Virus record (IMG/VR): IMGVR_UViG_3300021255_002539
Location: 1-64,000 of that record
Length of the DNA stretch: 64,000 nt
Direction: 5' to 3' (one strand)
From: a virus
Taxonomy: Duplodnaviria; Caudoviricetes
The notes below the pieces were generated by a model. It did not search any database, had not been told where the DNA came from, and saw only the letters and a list, made by a program, of their open reading frames with translations. A program made the translations under genes and the position numbers. Shown piece by piece: positions 4,441 through 19,006 of the stretch; the stretch's first letter is position 1, and each line of letters begins with the position of its first letter.

Positions 4441-5715
4441 TTACTTTGCGTTGTTCTCCAGAATCTTGAAGCAGGGGCAGTTGTTCGCCGTGTCCATCTT
4501 CCTGAATGGGGCGCAATCCTCAAGCCAAAACTTGTGAAAGTCGAAGTCGGGCGCCAGGAAGTTGAACCTCTTGAAGCCAGGCATATGTTCACAGAAGGAA
4601 CAGAGGCAAGCCTCGCCAAATGTGTTGATATACAGCGAGATACGTCCACCTTCGCAGGGCTCCATGTACTTCACCAGGTCGTTCCGACCCCTGGCCTTGT
4701 AGTATTCTGAGACCAATCCACACGAGCAGGAGTCGAAGCCAAAACCAATCCCAATCTTCTCGCACTTGGTGATAACCTTGTCAAGGGTCTCTATGGACAA
4801 TGTGCAGGGGAGCTTGCTTGCCCTACCAACGGGCTTGCACCGAAGGAACACGATGTTGCGCAGACCCGGAACCTTGCCAGACTCAATGTCCCCAAGCACC
4901 TCCTCCACGAAGGGCAGGTTGGAGTCCGAGAGGATGATGTGCATGTTGCAGAAGTCCTTGGACCGCTCGTTGAACCTCTTGATGGTATTGTAGCAGAGGT
5001 TCTTGTCCGTCTCGTAGACAGAGACAGCGATTCGACCACAATACTTGAGCGTAGCCTCAAAGATTTCGTCGTTGAGGTCGGCCCCAGAAAGGGTGTAGTT
5101 GGGGACGATGCCCATGTCCTCACGAAGCCAACGAAGCATCTCCACGAAGTCGGGGTTGGTCTGGACGCCTGTGATTCCAAGCGCAATCTGAGAGAGGTTT
5201 CTGGGGAACTTGCCAACCACCTTCTTGAAGGTCTCAAGGCTCATGTTGGTTGCGGGCTTGTCCGTGTTGTTCTTGTAGCAGAACTTGCAGGACGCACCAC
5301 CCACCTTGGGGCAGCCATTTATGCTCACCTCAAGATCAAGTATCTCATTTCCGAGTGGACACCAACTGGGGTCGTCCTCTACTGTCCTTCCCATCCTGGC
5401 GTTGAACCCTGTGGTCTTGTTGAAGATTTGGGTATACGAGCCATCACGGTTGATGACGAACTTGTGGGTTGTCGTATCGACAACCAGCCAATTCTGCGTC
5501 ACGCCATCGACCTCAATGGCATATTCGTACTTCTTCGCGCCATCCTTGAAGGCTGTCTTGTTGAGTCCCATGAACGCCTTGGGGTCGGGGGCACATCCCC
5601 CCTTGATGCACTGGGAGACATAGATGCCAAGCGCGACCTCGGCAATCTCCTTTGGCTCGGAGACAAGACGAAGGTTCACTGTCTTGACCATTGGTTTCTG
5701 AGCTTCTGTATCCAT
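4441..5715 (-). CDS. Radical SAM protein (CX7CX2C variant, Cys-rich C-terminus)
   Basis: LEVSINGCPKVGGASCKFCYK, NMSLETFKK, PNYT, AVS, FLRCKPVGRA, GFDSC, EPCEG..SLYIN..G...CSFCE. Confidence 0.85.
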   Translation of the reverse strand: MDTEAQKPMVKTVNLRLVSEPKEIAEVALGIYVSQCIKGGCAPDPKAFMGLNKTAFKDGAKKYEYAIEVDGVTQNWLVVDTTTHKFVINRDGSYTQIFNKTTGFNARMGRTVEDDPSWCPLGNEILDLEVSINGCPKVGGASCKFCYKNNTDKPATNMSLETFKKVVGKFPRNLSQIALGITGVQTNPDFVEMLRWLREDMGIVPNYTLSGADLNDEIFEATLKYCGRIAVSVYETDKNLCYNTIKRFNERSKDFCNMHIILSDSNLPFVEEVLGDIESGKVPGLRNIVFLRCKPVGRASKLPCTLSIETLDKVITKCEKIGIGFGFDSCSCGLVSEYYKARGRNDLVKYMEPCEGGRISLYINTFGEACLCSFCEHMPGFKRFNFLAPDFDFHKFWLEDCAPFRKMDTANNCPCFKILENNAK

Positions 5716-5716
5716 T

Positions 5717-6043
5717 TCAATTTCCCTTCTTTTCTGCTTCCACGAGCTCCATCCACGCGTTGGCAGTGGCGTAGCAGTGTTCAAGCTTCTTCACAGTGTC
5801 CACGAAGTCCTTCATCGCGTTCTTGAACACCTTGTCGCCACTACCATATCCAGATCTGAGGACGCCGAGGATGTTCGCAGTGTGCTGGTCAAGTTCCTTC
5901 TCGTATTCCTTGTACGCCTTCTGGATGACCTTGGTCGTGGACTTCCGCGCCTTGGGATTTGCGTCCCAGACCTTGCGGGCAATAACCCGAGACCGCTTCA
6001 TGTACTTCGGCTCAACCTTGGTTGTGTTGTTCGTGCCCTTCAT
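5717..6043 (-). CDS. Hypothetical basic protein
   Basis: AAAGGAG SD; first gene after promoter 6071-6100. Confidence 0.65.
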   Translation of the reverse strand: MKGTNNTTKVEPKYMKRSRVIARKVWDANPKARKSTTKVIQKAYKEYEKELDQHTANILGVLRSGYGSGDKVFKNAMKDFVDTVKKLEHCYATANAWMELVEAEKKGN

Positions 6044-6070
6044 TTCAGTTCTCCTTTGGATTTCGCCTAT

Positions 6071-6100
6071 ATTATAGCATATTTGACTGCTGTTTGTCAA
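6071..6100 (-). promoter_or_regulatory. sigma70-type early promoter TTGACA-18-TGCTATAAT
   Basis: Consensus -35 and extended -10; near-identical core ATGCTATAATATAGGC recurs at 13047, 16707, 25607. Confidence 0.85.
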
Positions 6101-6115
6101 TGGGGTTGCGAAGCA

Positions 6116-6178
6116 AAACCATTGTTGTTATCAATGGGGTTCTGCTACGCAGAAACCATTGTTGTTATCAATGGGGTT
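6116..6178. repeat. Two 26-bp direct repeats (AAACCATTGTTGTTATCAATGGGGTT), each an imperfect palindrome
   Basis: Copies at 6116-6141 and 6153-6178, plus a half copy CAATGGGGTT overlapping the -35 box. Confidence 0.9.
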
Positions 6179-6515
6179 TGCTTGTCTTTTCTGCTATCTT
6201 GACAACCTCCTGTATCACAGATGCGTCTATGTTGGTTTTTCGCCTTTCGGACAGCCCAAGCCACATTTCTATGGTATAGTCGTAGTCGTAGATGAGGGAC
6301 TCAACAAACCTGACATAGTATCCAGCAATGGACAAGTCGAACAAGATCGAAGCAAAGTCCTCCGGGGAATATCTATAGCTAGGATAATACCCACAAAGCG
6401 AGTCATCTTCTCCATATTCTCCACGCGCCCAGATGGAGAATTGCAGATTCGTCAATGGGGGTTGATTGTACATCTTCTCCCGAAGATTGTTTACGATTGT
6501 CCTTGCTTGCTTCAT
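6168..6515 (-). CDS. Paralog family A member
   Basis: DFASILFDLSIAG and TNIDASVIQEVVK motifs. Confidence 0.7.
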   Translation of the reverse strand: MKQARTIVNNLREKMYNQPPLTNLQFSIWARGEYGEDDSLCGYYPSYRYSPEDFASILFDLSIAGYYVRFVESLIYDYDYTIEMWLGLSERRKTNIDASVIQEVVKIAEKTSKPH

Positions 6516-9977: not shown

Positions 9978-10853
9978 TTACTTGCCAAGCAAATACTTCT
10001 TGATGAAGCTCTTCTTGGTCTCCTCGTCGAACTGCGTCAGCTTGTCGAAGTACGCCATGAACAGTTCCTCCTTGGAGTCGAACCCGGTCTTCTCGAAGAA
10101 GTAGTCTAGACCCTCCTGGTTGAACAGCCTTTCCACGAACAGGGCAAGGCGAGCATTGAACTTCGCGGAGTTGCCAACCACCTTGTTGATCTCTGCGAAG
10201 ATCTGCTTGTGGCTCTTCTGAGTCTCGAACCATCGGCGTACGCGCATCTTGTCCTTCTCGGTGGCATTGTCGCACCACTTGAGAATCCAATCCTTGAACT
10301 CCTCTGCCTTGTCGTCGGCAAGAACTTCGTCAGTGTGGTCGTTGTCGAAGTCAGCATTCTCCATCTTGGAGTAGTCAAGGAGCTTGTTGCCAGGGATCTT
10401 CAGGTCCGCGATTGAGATGAGCATACCCGTGATCTTGGGGTACTTCTTCATCACAGAAGCCAGAACGCCCTTGTACTTGTTGTACCAGGAATCAGGAATC
10501 CCCTCGTCAACAAACTCTATGAAGCAAGCAATCTCAGTCCAGAGCCACACCGATGTGAACTCGTAGGCCTTGTAGAGGTTGGCGCGAGTGGGAGCCATTC
10601 CATTGAAGCAATCGAACTCCACATTCTCCTTCTTCAATGCGTCCCGAACATACCAAAGCATCCTCAACTTCGCCATGGCAATTGTACGCACATCGTAATT
10701 CAGGTTGGTGGTTTCCTCCCGAACATAGTCCCGATCGTTGTTCACAACCTCAGCGAACACAGACCTGTTGAAGTCCTTGCCATAGTAGCCGGTGAATATA
10801 TCACGAATCTTCGTCCCCTTGGGGAGCTGCCTGACCTTTAGTTCCTTGCACAT
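9978..10853 (-). CDS. Hypothetical protein
   Basis: AAAGGAG SD before MCKELKV; strong phage codon bias. Confidence 0.7.
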   Translation of the reverse strand: MCKELKVRQLPKGTKIRDIFTGYYGKDFNRSVFAEVVNNDRDYVREETTNLNYDVRTIAMAKLRMLWYVRDALKKENVEFDCFNGMAPTRANLYKAYEFTSVWLWTEIACFIEFVDEGIPDSWYNKYKGVLASVMKKYPKITGMLISIADLKIPGNKLLDYSKMENADFDNDHTDEVLADDKAEEFKDWILKWCDNATEKDKMRVRRWFETQKSHKQIFAEINKVVGNSAKFNARLALFVERLFNQEGLDYFFEKTGFDSKEELFMAYFDKLTQFDEETKKSFIKKYLLGK

Positions 10854-10882
10854 TGTAGTTTCTCCTTTCGTTGTGGTAAATC

Positions 10883-11527
10883 TCAAATCCAAGTAAACAG
10901 GAACACATAGTCCTTGTTCTCGGGGTTGGTCATCTCGTTCTTGACAGCCGTAAGGGCTTCAATGATGTATGACGCACCAGGACGCCAACCCTTGTTGTGC
11001 CAGGGGAATCCATAGTGGTATGCGCGGCCGCCATACACCTTCTCCACCTCCTTGTAGATGTCAACATTCTCCTTGCAGGAGGAGACATAGACCTTCTCCC
11101 ACGGATCATCCGGATCCTTTGGCTTGTCCTCCACATACTTCCATGTGCCAGGCTTAAGATACTGCTTGTAAATCTCCTCAGCTTCAGATTTCTTGTCGCA
11201 CGGCATGGACGCAACCTTCTTGTCCAGATTGACGAGAACTTCAATCGCCCTATTGACGCTCTCAGGGGTCACGACCATCGCCTGCTCGTCGTCGGAATAG
11301 GCGTTCTTGATGTAGTTGGCAAGCTCGGCGTCCTTGCCATCAATCTCCCCATCATTGGGCTTGACTAGCCTGTAGAGATAGTCTTCGCGGTCAAGGTCTC
11401 CAACGATGTCAATGTAGTCGGGGTTGTAGTCTTCAATCCAGAGACCATCCGAATCCCTTATAAACCGGGACTTGCCAGAGAGGAACACCTCCCGGCGAAC
11501 CTTGCAGAATCCATATGAATTACCCAT
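10883..11527 (-). CDS. Hypothetical protein
   Basis: AAAGGAG SD; first gene after promoter 11566-11595. Confidence 0.7.
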   Translation of the reverse strand: MGNSYGFCKVRREVFLSGKSRFIRDSDGLWIEDYNPDYIDIVGDLDREDYLYRLVKPNDGEIDGKDAELANYIKNAYSDDEQAMVVTPESVNRAIEVLVNLDKKVASMPCDKKSEAEEIYKQYLKPGTWKYVEDKPKDPDDPWEKVYVSSCKENVDIYKEVEKVYGGRAYHYGFPWHNKGWRPGASYIIEALTAVKNEMTNPENKDYVFLFTWI

Positions 11528-11565
11528 TGTCGTTTCTCCTTTGTTTGGTTTCCAACAACGCCTAT

Positions 11566-11595
11566 ATTATATCATATTTGGTGGTCAGATGTCAA
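11566..11595 (-). promoter_or_regulatory. sigma70-type early promoter
   Basis: TTGACA-18-TGATATAAT. Confidence 0.8.
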
Positions 11596-11621
11596 TAGAC
11601 CTTTGGCATTCAAGCACAGAA

Positions 11622-11637
11622 TGTTCCATGTGGAACA
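11622..11637. promoter_or_regulatory. parS-like 16-bp palindrome TGTTCCATGTGGAACA (copy 1)
   Basis: Close to parS consensus TGTTNCACGTGAAACA; identical copy at 11831. Confidence 0.5.
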
Positions 11638-12813
11638 TCATAACCCCAATGCATCTGACAACTTGCCAAGCCCCATCTGGTCAATGTAGTCCTTCACCGA
11701 GAGGATGGGGTGCTCCTTCTTCACACAACCATACTTGCAGTCGAAGTACGCGAACGCGAACCCGGAATAGGGCTTCCTTGATTCAGACGCAAACACCCAC
11801 TTGGCGAAGTCCTTCTTCGTCATGCCAGAATGTTCCATGTGGAACAACATGTCTATCTCGTCCTTGGTGATCTCAAGTGAGGACACATAGGCATCGTACT
11901 TGCCCTTCACGAAGTCGAACGCTGCCTTGAACTTGGGGAAGTACGCAATGTACTCGGAAACCTCGCCAGCAAGGAGAATCTCAAGGACGCGCCTCCCCGA
12001 CCAGTTCTGATTGTTAGCCATGTAGTGAAGCTGAACATATCGCGGAGACTTCACCTTGATTCGGTTGAAGTCCTTGTCGCAAACCACATAGCCCTCCTCG
12101 TCCTCAGGAAGTTCAGACGCGGCAGCAACGCACTGGTCTATGCTCGTTATTGGATACACCTTCGGCGTGTCGAACACCTTGGACAACTCGTGGTCGCCAT
12201 AGAAGGTCTCCTGGAAGGTCAAGTTGTCCCGGACGCCCAAGAACCAAACCTTCGTCTCCTGCCACTGAACAACAACCTGATTATAGGGAGAGGTGAGCTC
12301 GAACATGTAGGTAAATCCAGGCTTGAACAACCTCGGAAAGTCCTCCTTGCCCAGTCCATAGAACTTCATGCCCTCCATGAACAGCTCCCCAAACGAATTG
12401 AATGGGCAATTGGATCCAACACTCTCAGGAAGATGGCACTTGCGGGCGTCAATCACTCCATTCGTGGATATCAGGAAATTGCCATCCAGGTTCACCACCT
12501 TCATAATCGAGCCATCGACCTTCTGCTCAACATATGCCGAAGACCAATCTATGTCCGCAGCATGGGGTTCGCCATAGTTGAAGAACTTGGTGAAGGGAAA
12601 GCACACGACCTCAAAGGTCTCGGCGTCCAATATCAGACCCCGACACTCCTTCACGATGTCAAGCGAGAAGTCAGCGTTGGTCTGGTCGTACTTGAACAGA
12701 ACCAACTTGCGCCCGAACACCTCGTCGTGCGATATGGACAAGTTGAATGGCTCGGACGAAAGCAGACACTCCCAATCCGAGTTTTCCCGAATGAACTCCT
12801 GAACCTTCAACAT
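11638..12813 (-). CDS. T4 Rnl1-like RNA ligase
   Basis: ECRGLIL, FPFTKFFNYGE, motif I KVDGS, FELTSPYN, EGYVV, RIKVKS..Y..LH. Confidence 0.9.
   Translation of the reverse strand: MLKVQEFIRENSDWECLLSSEPFNLSISHDEVFGRKLVLFKYDQTNADFSLDIVKECRGLILDAETFEVVCFPFTKFFNYGEPHAADIDWSSAYVEQKVDGSIMKVVNLDGNFLISTNGVIDARKCHLPESVGSNCPFNSFGELFMEGMKFYGLGKEDFPRLFKPGFTYMFELTSPYNQVVVQWQETKVWFLGVRDNLTFQETFYGDHELSKVFDTPKVYPITSIDQCVAAASELPEDEEGYVVCDKDFNRIKVKSPRYVQLHYMANNQNWSGRRVLEILLAGEVSEYIAYFPKFKAAFDFVKGKYDAYVSSLEITKDEIDMLFHMEHSGMTKKDFAKWVFASESRKPYSGFAFAYFDCKYGCVKKEHPILSVKDYIDQMGLGKLSDALGL
11831..11846. promoter_or_regulatory. parS-like 16-bp palindrome (copy 2, inside RNA ligase CDS)
   Basis: Identical to 11622-11637; shared 21-bp CAGAATGTTCCATGTGGAACA. 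Confidence 0.5.
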
Positions 12814-12833
12814 TTCGATTCCCCTTGTGTACC

Positions 12834-13010
12834 TCAATACTTGCTGGGACGGCAAATCCAAGAGACGATGGCAATAGCAACAAGAACCATCACCCCAATG
12901 ATGATGTAGTCTGCCGTAGTTGCGTGGTGGACGACTTCCGTGGTGGAAGTGCCATCGGCATTCTCATTTGTCCAAAAAGCGAGCAGATACGGCCAAACGA
13001 CTTGATTCAT
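12834..13010 (-). CDS. Small membrane protein
   Basis: AAAGGAG SD; hydrophobic C-terminus. Confidence 0.6.
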   Translation of the reverse strand: MNQVVWPYLLAFWTNENADGTSTTEVVHHATTADYIIIGVMVLVAIAIVSWICRPSKY

Positions 13011-13046
13011 GGTTTTACTCCTTTCATTTCTTTTCTTGATGCCTAT

Positions 13047-13076
13047 ATTATAGCATATTCGGAGTAGAAATGTCAA
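13047..13076 (-). promoter_or_regulatory. sigma70-type early promoter
   Basis: TTGACA-18-TGCTATAAT. Confidence 0.85.
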
Positions 13077-13174
13077 TACCCCTTGGGTATTCTTGTCGAC
13101 TATGTTGACACTCAATACCCCTTTCTTGGAGAATTGTGACCAAATTCCGTTGATTGTTCGCCATATTTGACGAA

Positions 13175-13432
13175 TCATTTCACCTTGCCGCACCTACCAA
13201 TCGTATCCACAATCTCGCGCATGTCAGCCCATATACCCTGGAACATCTTGAGCAATTTGGTTTTGGTGGCTCTGCTCAGATTAGAATATCCAACGGCATC
13301 CTGTGCGTCGAAAATGGCATCCTCGCACTTGTCGAAATTAGTTGCCACGACATAGTGCAGGTCGTTCAACTCCTTGTAGTATTTCGCCTTGTCAATCTTG
13401 GTACCGTTAGTCTGTTTCCTAGTTTTCGCCAT
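13175..13432 (-). CDS. Hypothetical protein
   Basis: AAGGAG SD. Confidence 0.65.
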   Translation of the reverse strand: MAKTRKQTNGTKIDKAKYYKELNDLHYVVATNFDKCEDAIFDAQDAVGYSNLSRATKTKLLKMFQGIWADMREIVDTIGRCGKVK

Positions 13433-13484
13433 AGTAGTTTGTCTCCTTCCTTTGATGTGACATATTATACAACAAATCTTTGTA

Positions 13485-14940
13485 TAATTAAATTAAATTG
13501 AATAAACTTCGTAAGGAAATAGAGGCAAACAAGGAGTGAGAATGTGCTAAAATGAAGACGATAAAATGCAAAATAACTAATGACATAGATGTTTCTGAAT
13601 ATCTTAGGAAATATAATAGTGTTTTGCATATTGCATACAATCGTCTAAAAGATTCATATACACAATCAGATATAAAGAAATACATCAATCCAAGATTTGA
13701 AGGATTGAATTCGTTTATCATCCAAAACGCAATTGTATAGGCGTAGTCCCTATTTGATTCCAACAAAGCGAGAAAAATGGAATTTGAGAGGAACAATCCA
13801 AGCAAGAAATACAAAGAAATTGTTTTTGGTGGAAGACACAACTTGAAAAACTACATGAAGGGCCTCATTTCAAAAGAAGAATATCGAAGAAACAAATTGA
13901 TACCGATGATGATTTCTGGCGAGACAAGACATAAAGGAAATAGACTTTTTGATTTGTAGGTTCAGAACAACAAAATTATATTTAAGCCAAAGAAAGGCAT
14001 AAAAATTCTAATCGAGTTCATGTGCTCAAATAAGCAAAACGATGAACTAATGAGAATATAGGAATTATGCCTATAGAAAAAGTATTCAGTTGCGATTGGA
14101 TTGAACAATGAATATGTGATGTTTTGCTTCGATGAAGTTAAATTGAATGGAAACAAATTCGCATATTCTGAATTAAAAGACAATAGAGTATTGGGAATTG
14201 ATCAAAATCCAAATTATTTGGGTGTATCCATATTGGAATTTAATAAGAAGGATAAATTCAATGTAATTCACAAAGAGGTATTTGACTTATCCAATTTAAC
14301 CAAGAAATCAAACTTGGCTGCCTCCCACAGGAAATCGAAATACTTGACTAATAAGAGAAAATTTGAAGTCATAAACTTGGCATATGAAATAGACAAATTA
14401 GTGAATGTGTGGAAAGTTGGAAAGGTTGTTGTAGAGGATTTGAATTTCAAATCAACATCAAATATGAAATCTCATTCTTTGAATAGATTGTGTAGGAATG
14501 TTTGGAATAGATGTTTGTTTGAAAACAAATTGAAGATGGTGTCAAAACTTCATGGATATGAGGTTGTTGAGATAAATCCTTGTTATACTTCGTAGATTGG
14601 TAATATTGTATATGGAAATGATACCACACCAGATATGGTGGCGTCTTCAATTGAAATTGGAAGACGAGGATATAGAAAATTTCAAAAGAATTGGTTCTAT
14701 CCGAAATTCGATGGGAGTTTGAATCAAATAAACGAGCAATGGAAGCAAACGATATTTGATAATTCCATTAAAGATTGGGGGGAATTATTCAACCTAATAA
14801 AAAATTCTAAACTTAAATATAGAGTTTCTTTGGATTGTTGTAGAAACAATTTCAAAGTTTTTAGTCTAAATCATTCAAAGTCTCGTATAATTAGAATGTA
14901 GTTTAATGATTTTTAATGATTTAGATATTTAATTAAAGTA
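13485..14940 (+). mobile_element. Non-autonomous IS200/IS605- or IS607-like tnpB element (ends approximate)
   Basis: Sharply AT-rich block, opposite orientation to flanking genes, single RuvC gene, no tnpA. Confidence 0.7.
13552..14916 (+). CDS. tnpB: TnpB-like RuvC nuclease, 454 aa when TAG=Gln (7 in-frame TAG)
   Basis: Four track fragments lie in one frame broken only by TAG; RuvC-I VLGIDQN, RuvC-II VVVEDL, INPCYTS*(Q), RuvC-III PDMVASSIEIGRRG; ends at TAA 14914-16. Confidence 0.85.
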
Positions 14941-14970
14941 GGTCAACCACCCAAATAGGAGGACATAGAC

Positions 14971-15189
14971 ATGGACACGACTTCTGAGATTATGATGAGG
15001 CTTCTTGAAGACCTCTATTCCGACGACGAACACACCACATTGACAGCACCATATTCGAAATACTACGACTCGTTGGACGCAGAACAGTCCAAGATCGTCG
15101 TGTCGGGGGCAATCAAGCGGCTGTTGAACGAGAACAAGAACGCAAAGTGTCAGTTTGGGGAAGAAGATTTCACCTTGTCGGTAGAATGA
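14971..15189 (+). CDS. Small acidic hypothetical protein
   Basis: AGGAGG SD. Confidence 0.6.
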   Translation: MDTTSEIMMRLLEDLYSDDEHTTLTAPYSKYYDSLDAEQSKIVVSGAIKRLLNENKNAKCQFGEEDFTLSVE

Positions 15190-15198
15190 GCTAATTGG

Positions 15199-15540
15199 TC
15201 AGAAATCAATTGATAATACTGGGATTTCCACCTTCCAATCATGTGGGTTGTTCTCCACCCTATCGGGGAAGTACTTCTCGTCTGTTGTTGGAAACAATAC
15301 ATGATCACGATACCACTTGACCTTCTCAGGATGCTCCCACAGGTCTTGAATCCAATGGACGAGCTTTGAATCTGAGTTCCTGATTGGATCGGACATTTGT
15401 TGCTCCAGTTCTTGCTTTGCATCTTCAGGCAATTCATTGTCCCCATACCTCTATTTCAGATACCTGTTGTAGGCATCTGGGGTCAGGAGAACCTGCATGG
15501 CTTCGTCTTCTGTATATTGCTTGTCCTATTGTTGATCCAT
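15199..15540 (-). CDS. Hypothetical late protein, 113 aa with 2 TAG=Gln
   Basis: ATG 15540 is in frame with track ORF 15199-15432 through two TAGs; TGTAAATA motif at 15547-54. Confidence 0.65.
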
Positions 15541-15555
15541 GACAAGTATTTACAA

Positions 15556-15670
15556 TGGAGCGGGAGGTTTTCGGGCTTCTACCGCACACCCCGATTTGCG
15601 ACTTCCACCTTTCAGTGAAATGAACCAAGCTTACCGCTCCCGCATCGGTATGTGCTTTCTCGTTGCAACG
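15556..15670 (-). ncRNA. Candidate structured RNA of unknown class
   Basis: Intergenic and GC-rich; GCACATACCGAT/ATCGGGGTGTGC stem, GAAA-tetraloop hairpin, alternative GCGGGAG/CTCCCGC stem ending in TCCA. Confidence 0.45.
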
Positions 15671-15679
15671 ATAAATCAA

Positions 15680-16006
15680 TCAAATGTACTTGTTGTAAAT
15701 TGCATCAACAAGTTCCTTGATGGTGATTTTATCTGAGGCGTAGATTGGCTCTCCATACTCATCTTCATCTTTTTCATATGAATATGACAAAACAATGTCA
15801 GCAACATCACCATCTTCAGGCGTTGGAATGTTCATGGAGTTCAAGTGTTCCCATGCCATTCTATAATATGTCCCATCGTCAAGCAGTTTTATTGAGTCAA
15901 AATCGCTTTTGATGTCGCCCCTTATCAGCTCAACAAGCCTGTCAAACTCGTCCTCAGTAAGATTCACGCCGTTTTCATAACTCTCACAAATTTTCTTCCA
16001 CATCAT
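15680..16006 (-). CDS. Acidic hypothetical protein, possible internal head protein
   Basis: AGTAAATA motif at 16052-59; N-terminal ICES. Confidence 0.6.
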   Translation of the reverse strand: MMWKKICESYENGVNLTEDEFDRLVELIRGDIKSDFDSIKLLDDGTYYRMAWEHLNSMNIPTPEDGDVADIVLSYSYEKDEDEYGEPIYASDKITIKELVDAIYNKYI

Positions 16007-16070
16007 CTTCTATACCTCATTGTAGAAGTCATTGCTGTGACTCCATAAAAGTATTTACTATAATTATACA

Positions 16071-16106
16071 AAAAATCCCGTCATAGGCCGACACCTATGA
16101 CGGGAA
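16071..16106 (-). terminator. Rho-independent terminator after tRNA
   Basis: 12-bp perfect stem TCCCGTCATAGG/CCTATGACGGGA followed by T-run on minus strand. Confidence 0.85.
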
Positions 16107-16107
16107 A

Positions 16108-16184
16108 TGGTACGCCCAGGGGGACTCAAACCCCCAACCTCATGGGTAGAAACCACGCTCTCTGTTCAATTGAGATATGGGCGC
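16108..16184 (-). tRNA. tRNA-Arg (anticodon TCT), 77 nt with encoded CCA
   Basis: Cloverleaf: GCGCCCA/TGGGCGT, TCTC/GAGA, CGTGG-TTTCTAC-CCATG, GGGGG-TTTGAGT-CCCCC, ACCA. Confidence 0.9.
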
Positions 16185-16360
16185 ATTGTCAAATCGTATC
16201 TCACGCTCTAGACCCATGGTTCGGCGTCCCCATGGGAAGACTCGCGGCTTCGGTTGCTTTTCTCCATCCCATCTCGACTACTTCTTCCTCAACAACATCG
16301 CAACCAGTCTTTCGTCCCAGCACTTCATCCTTCATCGACCAACAACAATTATACGAAAAC

Positions 16361-16672
16361 TCACGAACACAATGCACATCTTCCAAACGTCAATCCCTCC
16401 ACCAACACATCGGCAATCTCGTTGTATTCGTCGACTGTTATGCCATACTTGTCCAATACCTTTTGGGTTGCCGACTTTGCCACAAACACCCTGTTCCCAC
16501 AACCATACTTGGGCTTGTTGGCGAAATCAATGTCGTCCCCCTCGCCAAAGTCGTATTGGTCTGCCTTCTGACCCTTGATGGTGAACACTGGGCAATAGCA
16601 ATTCCACTTCGACACCTTGATGTCGTAGAGTCCATCCTTGCTTCTTTCCAGTCTATATTCTCCAATGTCCAT
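16361..16672 (-). CDS. Hypothetical protein
   Basis: First ORF after promoter 16707; C-terminal FGRCALCS. Confidence 0.65.
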   Translation of the reverse strand: MDIGEYRLERSKDGLYDIKVSKWNCYCPVFTIKGQKADQYDFGEGDDIDFANKPKYGCGNRVFVAKSATQKVLDKYGITVDEYNEIADVLVEGLTFGRCALCS

Positions 16673-16706
16673 ATAGTAGCCTTTGCTTGCTTCTCAATTC
16701 GCCTAT

Positions 16707-16736
16707 ATTATAGCATATTCAGGCATCGAATGTCAA
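16707..16736 (-). promoter_or_regulatory. sigma70-type early promoter
   Basis: TTGACA-18-TGCTATAAT. Confidence 0.85.
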
Positions 16737-16761
16737 TAGACCTTATCATCTTTGTTGATAC

Positions 16762-17121
16762 TCAATGCCCCCTGTGCATATACAACCACTCGCCACCCTT
16801 GAACAAATAGCCATCAAAGTCCTTCTCGTCGCACATCTGTGGTTGAACATCCTCCCAATCCTCACCCCTGTCCCGATGATATGCAACAGTTATTCCGGAA
16901 GCAGGATGTTCCCAAGAATGTTCAACCCCCTCTGGAATGTCAACCTCCCTGTCAACACTTGAACAATCTCCAAGGGCGATCAACTTCTCGACCTTTTCTG
17001 GATCATAATAGTTCTCCTTGAGCATTTCCCACATGTATTCAGGATATGCGTCGAAATGCACATAGATGCACTCTACCTTGCCATTTCCTCTGCTTATGCC
17101 AATATGTCCTGATGTAGCCAT
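16762..17121 (-). CDS. Conserved phage hypothetical protein (MAT..I...Y.H.D.YP type)
   Basis: MATSGHIGI...IYVHFDAYPE...LKENY.DPEKVEKLIALGDCS...AYHRDRGE; GAGGAG SD. Confidence 0.75.
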   Translation of the reverse strand: MATSGHIGISRGNGKVECIYVHFDAYPEYMWEMLKENYYDPEKVEKLIALGDCSSVDREVDIPEGVEHSWEHPASGITVAYHRDRGEDWEDVQPQMCDEKDFDGYLFKGGEWLYMHRGH

Positions 17122-17135
17122 TGTTGTTCTCCTCT

Positions 17136-17378
17136 TTAGTCTGTGCAATCTCCTGGTTCAAAACTTCTTGGGTCGTGGGCTTCACCACCACAAAAAACCA
17201 TTGCCTCCCCATTCAGCAACTCGCCCATCTGAATTGCGATTCCAAATGGCGAGACCTTCCCATCTGGATGGGACAAGAATACGGGTATGTTCCCATGCAG
17301 TTTGAGGAGCTTTTTGCAGCCCCTTACGAAGTCCTTTAGTCCAGTGTAACGTGGCATTACTCCAGTATAACGTGGCAT
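17136..17378 (-). CDS. Small hypothetical protein with duplicated N-terminus
   Basis: MPRYTGV-MPRYTGL from a 21-bp tandem duplication; TTTACT-18-TATAAT promoter at 17402-31. Confidence 0.6.
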   Translation of the reverse strand: MPRYTGVMPRYTGLKDFVRGCKKLLKLHGNIPVFLSHPDGKVSPFGIAIQMGELLNGEAMVFCGGEAHDPRSFEPGDCTD

Positions 17379-17431
17379 TTGTTGTAGTTCCTTTCAACTA
17401 TATTATACCACTTTGGATACATTGAAGTAAA

Positions 17432-19006
17432 TCACTTTCTCAACACTTGTGGCACTGGCGCAATCTCCCATGCCTTTGTCAGTTGAATTCGCTCGAACAT
17501 GTTGGGTGAGCTGTCCTTTGTGGTGCCATTGATGGAGATGGTGTGGGTGGTCTTGAAGCTAATCCAACTGCCAAAAAACTGATTATCGCCGAATTGGTTG
17601 GATTCTGTCTTCGCCTCTATCTCAGACTTGTTGTTCGAGTCCACTGGCTCGTCTGGCTTCAATTTGTCGGTGTCAAGCACTTGCTTCTCCTTCATTTCGT
17701 CCTTCCTGCGTATGAGGTAGAAGCACTGATATGGCTGATGGCAGACCTTGTTGCCCCTCGTCAGGATGAAGCTGTCCCTGTTGGCGATGCCCTGTATGCA
17801 GTCGTTGTAGAGGTGGCGTTGGTTGTTCCACTTCGCCTCGTCTATCAGATACCTCGTCTTGTCCTCGTGTAGGAAATCCTGTAGATCGGGCACCGATTCC
17901 TCCGAGGTTATGTCCGGGTTGGGGTAGAATGTGGCGTCCCTCTTTGGGCAGGCATTTGGGGACTTGAAGGTGTTCTGAATCTTCTCGTTCATTATGATTC
18001 TACGAACGAACTTCTCCTTCGTTATGTCCAAGTCCCAATAGTGGCGCGTGTAGTAGTCCTTGATGAACCTGGTGTAGGACATCTTGGACAGGGAGGTGAC
18101 CTAGGGTCTTTGTACCTTCGCCTCGCCAGCACCGGGCATATATGGGTTCACCTCGGTCTCTGTTATCTCGTAGAACCTGCTCAACTGGATGAAGTTGTGC
18201 TTCGTCCTCAACATGGTGGTCTCGTCGTTGAGCTTCGCCATCCTGTACTTCCTCTCCTTCTCGTCCCAGAGGATTATACGGGGGTGGTTGTCCACATCGA
18301 AGGAAGATGGTTCCATGTACATTCTGTTGAGCAGGTAGTTGATGGCAGTGAAGTAGTTGTCCTTCTGTGTGGTGGTGTAGTAGATGCAGATGTCTGTCTT
18401 GCAGGGATCCTCCAGAAAGGTCTGTGTCGCAACATTGTCCAGTCCAACGGCGTCAACGAGCAGCTTGGCTATTATGGTGGTTATTGGCTCTGGCTCCTTT
18501 TGGTTGTAGTTGGAGTACTGGCATACGGCAGAAAGCTTGTACCAGGACGCAGACACCAGTTCCAGGCGGTATGTCGTGACATCCGTATGCGTGTCGTGGG
18601 ATATTATCTCCATCTTGTTGACCAGGAAGGTGTGGTTGAAGTAGTCCTCCTTCTTGATTGGCTTCTCCACCCAATAGTCCGACGCTGGCTCCCCATCTTC
18701 CCGGACTGCTGACTTCTTCTCGGCCAGGTTCTCTGCCCACTCCACCTTGACGAGCAGATGTGGGATTCTAAACATCTTGCCCAAGTTGCGCTCTGTGTCC
18801 TTGTACACCAACTGCCCAGTGAGTATGAGAGCATTCCATTGGTTGGTGTACTCGAACAAGGATATGTTGGCGGGGTTCAAGATGATGTTCTTCATCTATA
18901 TGTTGGTGGTGTCGTAGACAGTCGCCTGGAAGCTCCATCCAGTTCCATCTATGACCCAATGCCCCTGAATCAACTCGGGATTCGGCGTTGTACTATAAGT
19001 AGCCAT
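17432..19006 (-). CDS. Putative baseplate hub-like structural protein, 524 aa with 2 TAG=Gln
   Basis: Joins 18101-18895 and 17432-18082 via TAG; ATG 19006 just after gp4 stop; ILTGQLVYKD reminiscent of gp27-type hubs (weak). Confidence 0.5.

Follow-up and report, generated by a model that had tools for sequence, protein, structure and literature searches.

Can a nuclease gene that is interrupted by seven TAG codons, and that stands without a transposase, still belong to a working mobile element? The question is raised by a locus in the first 64,000 nucleotides (the window) of the IMG/VR record IMGVR_UViG_3300021255_002539, a 414,060-bp virus (Caudoviricetes) with direct terminal repeats. A preliminary description of the sequence had placed a TnpB-like gene at 13485–14940, which nearly coincides with the independently derived boundaries of 13489–14933 reported here. 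The locus is probably best understood as a non-autonomous, ISCaje4-like element of the IS607 type, in which tnpA is deleted, tnpB and a predicted omega-RNA scaffold are intact, and an activity in homing or retention would persist. The central features are as follows.

13489–14933, + strand: IS607-type (ISCaje4-like) element with deleted tnpA, 1445 bp; delimited by empty sites in related phages (L049–L055), a copy on a contig from run X6 and a low-GC island

13552–14916, + strand: tnpB, 454 codons with TAG read as Gln, from the scan of open reading frames (ORFs), the alignments and the fold; catalytic residues D217, E295 and D361

13738, 13744, 13957, 14059, 14074, 14593 and 14899, + strand: first bases of the TAG codons in tnpB, read as Gln

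When TAG is read as Gln, a single ORF spans 13552–14916; under the standard code the same stretch splits into ORFs of at most 164 aa. The frame holds exactly seven in-frame TAGs (codons 63, 65, 136, 170, 175, 348 and 450), as had been counted before, and its 454 codons contain neither an in-frame TAA or TGA nor a frameshift. Next to eight CAA and one CAG, TAG makes up seven of the 16 Gln codons. The strongest site is codon 170, where the alignment column is Gln in 140 of 142 homologues. At codons 65 and 175 the aligned residue is most often Gln, and at codons 63 and 348, the latter being the Q of the YTSQ motif, Gln is found within the closest clade, so that the assignment of Gln in the preliminary description agrees with the homologues; codons 136 and 450 fall in variable columns. 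Many other long frames of the window depend on TAG read-through as well, for example a 3450-aa ORF with seven TAGs. An ordinary pseudogene, in which the TAGs are real stops, would fit the fragmentation of tnpB by standard-code gene callers and the lack of a tRNA(CUA) call in the genome by ARAGORN or Rfam. Its probability is nevertheless close to nil, as the interruptions are TAG only and sit on Gln columns including the invariant Q170, read-through is needed throughout the window, relatives share TAG sites, and a candidate tRNA with a CUA anticodon loop exists (see below).

Other copies of the family also contain TAGs: five each in L011 and L044, three in L045, eight in L046, seven in L031, ten in Lak-C1, and five within 266 aa in L047. 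In the other TAG-bearing copies, too, the interruptions are TAG only, and the sites at 38, 47, 63 and 65 are common to copies that are about 65% identical. As TAG sites recur in copies from other phages, they seem to have been inherited with the element lineage rather than acquired in this phage, and the sharing of sites shows that TAGs are kept as sense codons in that lineage. The clade at 45% identity mostly ends in TAG as a true stop, which places these members in standard-code phages. Judged from the reading frame, synthesis of a full-length TnpB would require that TAG be decoded as Gln, which holds for the present phage. In the copy at L031:3001–4302, TAGs stand at columns where nearly every family member has Glu (E in 134 of 142 and in 139 of 142); either Gln is tolerated at conserved Glu positions there, or its phage decodes TAG otherwise.

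ARAGORN, at default and relaxed thresholds, and Rfam called no tRNA(CUA) anywhere in the genome, and no standard suppressor tRNA was found with a regular expression describing a canonical CUA anticodon arm followed by a T-arm-like stem-loop. By eye, a tRNA-like sequence was located outside the window, at about 297,887–297,970 on the minus strand of the genome (G000:C1; about 5887–5970 of locus L008). It combines a perfect 7-bp acceptor stem (UGAUCCA/UGGAUCA) and G73-CCA with an anticodon arm AGCGG-CUCUAAC-CCGCU (anticodon CUA) and an atypical 8-nt T-loop. Its U1-A72, G2-C71 and G73 are compatible with Gln identity, and it is regarded as a candidate TAG suppressor. Apart from this sequence, about 27 tRNA genes are clustered at 361,900–371,000 of the genome together with a tmRNA (tag GNDYRMAA), and one tRNA of the cluster (367853–367926) has an anticodon loop of 6 or 8 nt. 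Within the window, a tRNA-Arg(TCT) is located at 16108–16184 on the minus strand.

The product had been described as a RuvC protein with its D/E/D motifs intact, and both alignment and structure prediction bear this out. The triad D217, E295 and D361 shows no variation among 24 close homologues and is kept in 135–136 of 136 diverse representatives. Among the latter, N219, P220, E368, R371/R372, P384, W409, K417, Y423 and R424 are essentially invariant along with the triad, and the window TnpB retains all 17 near-invariant residues of the family. For the AlphaFold2 model (pLDDT 76), the top Foldseek matches were AsCas12f (E 9e-11), Cas12k, Fanzor2 and the TnpB structures 8H1J (E 2.5e-7) and 8EXA, at TM-scores to TnpB/Cas12f structures of only 0.3–0.44; the RuvC core of the model matches bacterial RuvC. 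On the strength of this model the protein is a predicted nuclease, namely a compact RuvC enzyme with a TnpB/Cas12f fold. TldR, a nuclease-dead TnpB-like repressor, was considered as an identity and rejected because the RuvC catalytic triad is intact.

Following YTSQ, the window TnpB continues with IGNIVYGNDTTPDMVASSIEIGRRGY and lacks a CxxC...CxxC motif. The missing zinc finger pointed out in the preliminary description is thus real, though not special to this copy: the motif occurs in none of 135 diverse representatives and is absent from ISCaje4. Likewise, the C-terminal extension noted there is present, and its roughly 80 residues beyond the RuvC-III motif are conserved family-wide. The extension forms a conserved domain, and both it and the loss of the zinc finger are characters of the family rather than local ones. 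The family is large: homologues number more than 1185 when clustered at 90% identity, and at 50% clustering, with E ≤ 1e-3, there are 1405 clusters. Placement by hidden Markov models, which had been proposed as a check, returned matches to TnpB models, all of them below cut-off: PF07282 scored 15.8 bits (E 0.016, first half of the model only; curated cut-off 26.3), TIGR01766 scored 26.8 bits (E 5.6e-6; curated cut-off 32), and phrog_12300 "transposase" matched at E 8e-8. Elsewhere in the genome, a 560-aa ORF without TAG (G000:C1, 158522–160204, + strand; L081:499–2181) is a distant relative of this TnpB family, with an hhalign probability of 94.6% and E 6.7e-8 over REC/WED up to a GEDQN RuvC-I-like motif. 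This ORF has no Pfam match and may be a second TnpB-like gene that is highly diverged or domesticated.

The limits of the insertion follow from a comparison with uninterrupted sites, for which these features are needed.

13175–13432, − strand: phage gene of 85 aa in the left flank, used in the protein search for empty sites

14971–15189, + strand: phage gene of 72 aa, served by the putative promoter before the insertion; in empty sites 94 nt from the divergent 85-aa gene

13485–13492, unstranded: left copy of the 8-bp TAATTAAA (recombination core or target), which is present at both junctions and once in the empty site

14930–14937, unstranded: right copy of TAATTAAA; on this side the element ends in ...ATATTTAAT at 14933

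The element forms a sharp low-GC island (GC 0.30 versus 0.45–0.48 in the flanks). Empty sites were located by a protein search followed by a contig look-up, and in the related phages L049–L055 the flanking genes of 85 and 71/72 aa lie only 94 nt apart. With a slash marking the junction, the empty site reads ...TTTGTATAAT/TAAAGTAGGTTCAACC..., the left junction in the window ...TTTGTATAAT/TAAATTAAATTG... and the right junction ...GATATTTAAT/TAAAGTAGGTCAACC.... As TAATTAAA stands at both junctions and once in the empty site, the inserted DNA amounts to 1445 bp and is taken as 13489–14933, the position of the boundary being ambiguous inside the 8-bp repeat. An independent copy on a contig from run X6, another gut metagenome, is homologous from exactly 13495 to exactly 14933; it is about 95–97% identical over the aligned contigs and has different flanks. 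The other copies and empty sites that had been called for as a means to define the ends are thereby in hand. In a contig from run X4, 13381 and 15199 are joined with about 357 nt between them versus 1817 nt in the window, which fits an empty allele occurring within the same study. No terminal inverted repeat of the element was found. A search of viral contigs for loci with both neighbouring small genes gave nothing, the exact 17-mer of the empty-site junction recovered 19 unrelated promoters in viral contigs (TTGACx-N17-TGTATAAT) and no syntenic site, and blastn of 10500–18400 versus GenBank phages returned no match.

Immediately inside the left boundary lies the trace of a second gene.

13495–13539, + strand: remnant of the 3′ end of tnpA (serine recombinase), 15 codons, KLNKLRKEIEANKE*; 9/11 identity to residues 186–196 of the L046 tnpA, syntenic

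The preliminary description stated that tnpA is absent. This holds for a functional gene, as neither a resolvase (PF00239) nor a Y1 transposase gene was found nearby or anywhere in the 414-kb genome; it does not hold for the 45-nt remnant, and relatives carry the full serine recombinase. In L004, L029, L045 and L046, a protein of 200–214 aa with a helix-turn-helix (HTH; HTH_17/MerR) and a Resolvase domain (E 6e-14 to 7e-15) is encoded directly upstream of tnpB, and in L027 and L031 a tnpA-like coding sequence precedes tnpB. The tnpA genes of L045 and L046 contain TAGs as well. Upstream of 13495, the sequence of the X6 contig carries on as TTTTCAATGAAAAGTTATTCCCATCGTAGA; its translation, FSMKSYSHRR, is the part of tnpA found ahead of KLNKL in relatives. 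Together with the relatives, this continuation identifies 13495–13539 as the last 15 codons of tnpA, the rest having been deleted after the first ~6 nt of the left end.

Family copies are multiple within single jumbo-phage genomes. A 215-kb phage has at least five, with 72–86% nucleotide identity, and three other phages have two each; two copies in the 215-kb phage stand in tandem, 2.2 kb apart (L013:3001–4296 and 5146–6469). In the 414-kb genome the copy is single, a second one not being found, and in line with the preliminary description no repeat array or CRISPR array was found. A solo tnpB without tnpA is the commonest state in the family, and solo copies are conserved. Several loci (L012, L016, L018, L020, L024, L025, L030 and L005) have a TTGACA-N17-TATATT promoter of their own about 40 nt upstream of tnpB. 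The solo-copy promoters, in the 45%-identity clade, end about 7 nt before the ATG, pointing to a leaderless or near-leaderless mRNA, and the palindrome between their hexamers covaries among copies and may be an operator.

The loss of tnpA invites the reading that the locus is a decaying relic, that is, a stranded element whose gene and RNA look intact only through recent insertion and have no present function. In agreement with this, tnpA is cut to 15 codons in a single-copy element of a resolvase-free genome, and a GC content of 0.30 that has not drifted toward the host value implies recent arrival. Clearly degraded copies also exist in other phages (L033, L034, L035 and L038), where early TAA/TGA stops make them true pseudogenes. 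Still, we regard decay as unlikely here: the 17 near-invariant residues are kept, no TAA, TGA or frameshift has entered the 454 codons, 51 of 61 RNA pairs persist (see below), and standing without tnpA is the usual, conserved condition of the family.

The insertion point itself bears on how tnpB could be expressed.

13481–13488, + strand: TGTATAAT, putative extended −10-like box in a promoter of the phage; the insertion lies directly on its 3′ side

Genome-wide, TGTATAAT occurs 41 times versus 15.5 expected, often with TTTAC about 17 nt upstream, and it therefore looks like the extended −10 of phage promoters of the sigma-70 type. In the empty sites it precedes the 72-aa gene; in the window, tnpB stands behind this early-type, sigma-70-like promoter amid small TAG-free genes. 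The left flank of L046 is similar (TGTTATAAT/TAAAT). The right end (...TATTTAAT) resembles the left-flank motif (...TATAAT) without being identical to it (TTTAAT versus TATAAT). From these very few cases, we infer a TATAAT-like target-adjacent motif (TAM) and a capture of the promoter by the element. Promoter-like TTTAC(A/C)-N~15-TGTATAAT sites were seen in the window at 13471 (−), 13481 (+), 16070 (−), 25397 (−), 41283 (−) and 51473 (−), and at 13464–13488 two −10 boxes are turned towards each other, forming a 9-bp inverted repeat in the gap that separates the divergent genes of 85 and 72 aa.

At the opposite end, the 3′ part of tnpB overlaps a predicted structured RNA.

14688–14933, + strand: predicted omega-RNA scaffold of five helices, overlapping codons ~380–454 and 17 nt past the stop; supported by covariation

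14934–14953, + strand: predicted guide portion, TAAAGTAGGTCAACCACCCA, the flank directly 3′ of the right end according to the TnpB paradigm; found once in the window

The last 230 nt of the coding sequence and 30 nt of flank were aligned for 29 copies, and pairs were counted in comparison with slid and shuffled controls. The consensus comprises 61 pairs in eight stem segments and five helical elements (~245 nt). Consensus cells are paired in 86.5% of cases, versus 37–45% when the partners are slid by 1–3 columns; double-sided changes are seen in 42 pairs versus 19–27 in the slid controls; and the covariation score is 0.434 versus at most 0.151 in controls, with none of 500 shuffles reaching 0.434. 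Coupled choices of codon family, for example Ser TCG/TCT with Arg CGN/AGA, are part of this covariation. The 290 nt of coding sequence directly upstream, taken from the same 29 sequences, yielded no consensus pairs. Within the consensus pairs, G.U cells (240) strongly exceed A.C cells (65), which assigns the structure to the sense-strand RNA. The window RNA keeps 51 of the 61 pairs, and folded alone it adopts the same architecture (−54.9 kcal/mol, z = −3.55). In the last helix, a segment about 50 nt before the stop codon pairs with a conserved motif just after it, and the scaffold ends no more than 7 nt from the mapped right end of the element. Once past the right-end motif, the copies run into unrelated flanking sequences, which is how a guide would look. 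These observations support the assignment of the 3′ structured RNA as an omega RNA with a guide that would start at 14934. This is also where the earlier expectation of a guide taken from the right flank, from about 14940 onward, becomes more precise, the right end being mapped to 14933. An Rfam search over 12500–16500 at E ≤ 1 found only the tRNA-Arg, and the RNA thus belongs neither to RAGATH-18 nor to any other curated family.

Could the structure serve other ends, as an mRNA stability or terminator element or as the right end bound by the recombinase, with the zinc-finger-less protein acting guide-free? The right-end DNA must indeed also be recognised by TnpA, and the absence of an Rfam match includes the known TnpB-associated RNAs. 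We consider this very improbable, since five helices over ~245 nt with 42 covarying pairs go far beyond a terminator, the sense-strand asymmetry of G.U over A.C argues for RNA rather than duplex DNA, the end of the structure coincides exactly with the boundary of the element, which is typical of omega RNAs, and the whole-protein fold matches RNA-guided TnpB and Cas12f.

One of the closest known systems is ISCaje4 of Campylobacter phage CP220 (GenBank NC_027997; annotated "IS200/IS605 family insertion sequence element ISCaje4"), whose TnpB of 465 aa falls into the family of the window TnpB (34% identity over 356 aa, E 1e-59). Both proteins have GIDxNPNY, EDL, YSSxIGN, PDxxxxSIEIGRRGY and a C-terminal IKNSKxRYRVSLD, and no Cys motif. 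Both elements reside in large phages with a resolvase-like remnant upstream of tnpB, which in ISCaje4 is a fragment of 80 aa as opposed to 15 codons in the window; the window copy further differs by its seven in-frame TAGs and its code-15 phage.

The relatives resemble the IS607 family (CboIStron, PMC10690162; H. pylori IS607, PMC6188088) in the order tnpA(Ser)-tnpB and in the N-terminal HTH plus Resolvase domain. Further likenesses, as far as one mapped insertion shows them, are that no terminal inverted repeats were found and that the ends and the target have a short identical core in common; the predicted omega RNA likewise lies at the 3′ end. The near-match of the right end to the left-flank motif (TTTAAT versus TATAAT) is comparable to UCGG versus the TGGG TAM of CboIStron (PMC10690162). 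Conversely, the core in the window, as seen in one mapped insertion, is the A/T-only TAATTAAA instead of GG/TGGG, the TnpB has no zinc finger, the RNA is not RAGATH-18 or another Rfam family, and tnpA is missing.

Characterised nucleases (ISDra2 TnpB 8EXA/8H1J, AsCas12f 8J12 and ISFba1 TnpB 8IAZ) agree with the model in fold and in the WED-REC-RuvC order of domains (Foldseek E 9e-11 to 5e-6), and also in the RuvC D/E/D triad and the overlap of the guide scaffold with the 3′ end of the gene. The differences are the absence of detectable sequence similarity to any PDB chain, the absence of a C4 zinc finger and the extra conserved C-terminal domain. Altae-Tran et al. 2023 (PMC10691335) describe some large branches of TnpB that have lost the C4 zinc finger, and an enrichment of clade RIIIr-4 in viruses. 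Membership in RIIIr-4 was not adopted, as that clade is described with an Asp-to-His change at RuvC-III (PMC10691335) and the present family keeps the Asp in 135 of 136 representatives.

Unannotated copies occur in Prevotella Lak megaphages (e.g. MK250029) and in other huge phages. Those of Lak are members of the same family at about 30% identity, multi-copy, zinc-finger-less and with in-frame TAGs, and they constitute a different subfamily from the window copy. Neither the Lak phage paper nor the recoding preprint (bioRxiv 10.1101/2021.08.26.457843) mentions these copies.

The preferred reading of an ISCaje4-like, non-autonomous IS607-type element starts from direct observations, i.e. the integrity of the gene and its code, the fold and family of its product, the insertion boundaries, the loss of tnpA and the covariation of the RNA. 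Inferred, in turn, are the processing of the RNA, cleavage, the TAM and the movement of the element by homing among phages in co-infection. In the proposed sequence of events, the element inserted between phage genes, precisely downstream of the TATAAT in an extended −10 promoter, and the serine-recombinase gene was later lost by internal deletion, leaving 15 codons. A short loop and the conserved C-terminal domain stand in place of the C4 zinc finger, as throughout the family. The omega RNA would be excised from the tnpB transcript, with its guide running into the flank from 14934, and the complex of TnpB and RNA would cut phage genomes in which the site is uninterrupted (...TATAAT + TAAAGTAGG...). 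The element would then be copied in as the break is repaired from a genome that has it, amounting to the homing and retention demonstrated for TnpBs of IS605 and IS607. Precedents exist for the mechanism of IS607 TnpB, for a TAM that coincides with the target of TnpA and for homing (PMC10690162).

Several observations weigh against this reading. Having lost tnpA and almost the whole left end, the copy may be heading to decay. No TnpB model scores the window TnpB above its curated cut-off, a family profile had no match among all PDB sequences at E ≤ 10, and the C-terminal 80 aa are modelled with low confidence; the placement of the protein accordingly rests on its fold, and nuclease activity is not transferable to it by close homology. 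Between the predicted guide and the recovered empty sites there is a 1-nt indel, at guide position 11, so that these relatives would be imperfect targets. Finally, the TAM and the recombination core derive from one mapped insertion and one or two look-alike left flanks.

The same nuclease could alternatively have been domesticated by the phage as a weapon, cutting the genomes of competing related phages in co-infection, with the TAGs delaying its production until a late suppressor is available, in line with the late-active, anti-competitor nuclease of the preliminary description. The predicted target is the uninterrupted allele of related phages from the same kind of samples, translation needs TAG decoding, and a delay of this sort has been suggested for a recoded homing endonuclease inserted into an early gene (bioRxiv 10.1101/2021.08.26.457843), which is a precedent for the timing idea and not evidence. 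We find such domestication improbable, somewhat more so than simple decay: homing accounts for the same facts without a benefit to the phage, the gene stands behind a sigma-70-like promoter among TAG-free genes, and TAG sites common to copies in other phages look like baggage of the lineage rather than tuning in this genome.

A further-reaching version of the preferred reading is possible, albeit doubtful. It holds that an IS607-like lineage, with TAG in both tnpA and tnpB, is locked to phages that decode TAG as Gln, uses an A/T-only core and TAM at the −10 box, captures promoters, and spreads by homing with a suppressor-gated nuclease. If true, such elements would land exactly behind phage promoters and use them to express a TnpB that lacks the zinc finger and comes with a new class of omega RNA, the need for a suppressor in translation would time the nuclease, and homing would spread the element among co-infecting megaphages.

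TnpB, IS607, code 15 and the loss of the zinc finger in some branches are already known, and the advance is in this respect incremental. New here are the code-15 lineage, the A/T-only core and a previously undescribed class of predicted omega RNA, in a family that is catalogued and otherwise uncharacterised. The locus provides a TnpB element in a stop-codon-recoded megaphage that is mapped in full, with its empty site, both junctions, deleted transposase, nuclease gene and RNA scaffold. It reveals a large zinc-finger-less TnpB family, with its own conserved predicted guide-RNA scaffold, in circulation among gut jumbo phages including Lak. For genome editing, the family offers a distinct compact pair of nuclease and RNA, possibly with an A/T-rich TAM. 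For phage biology, it raises the ideas that selfish elements can come to depend on the genetic code of their carrier, and that RNA-guided homing may take place between co-infecting phages.

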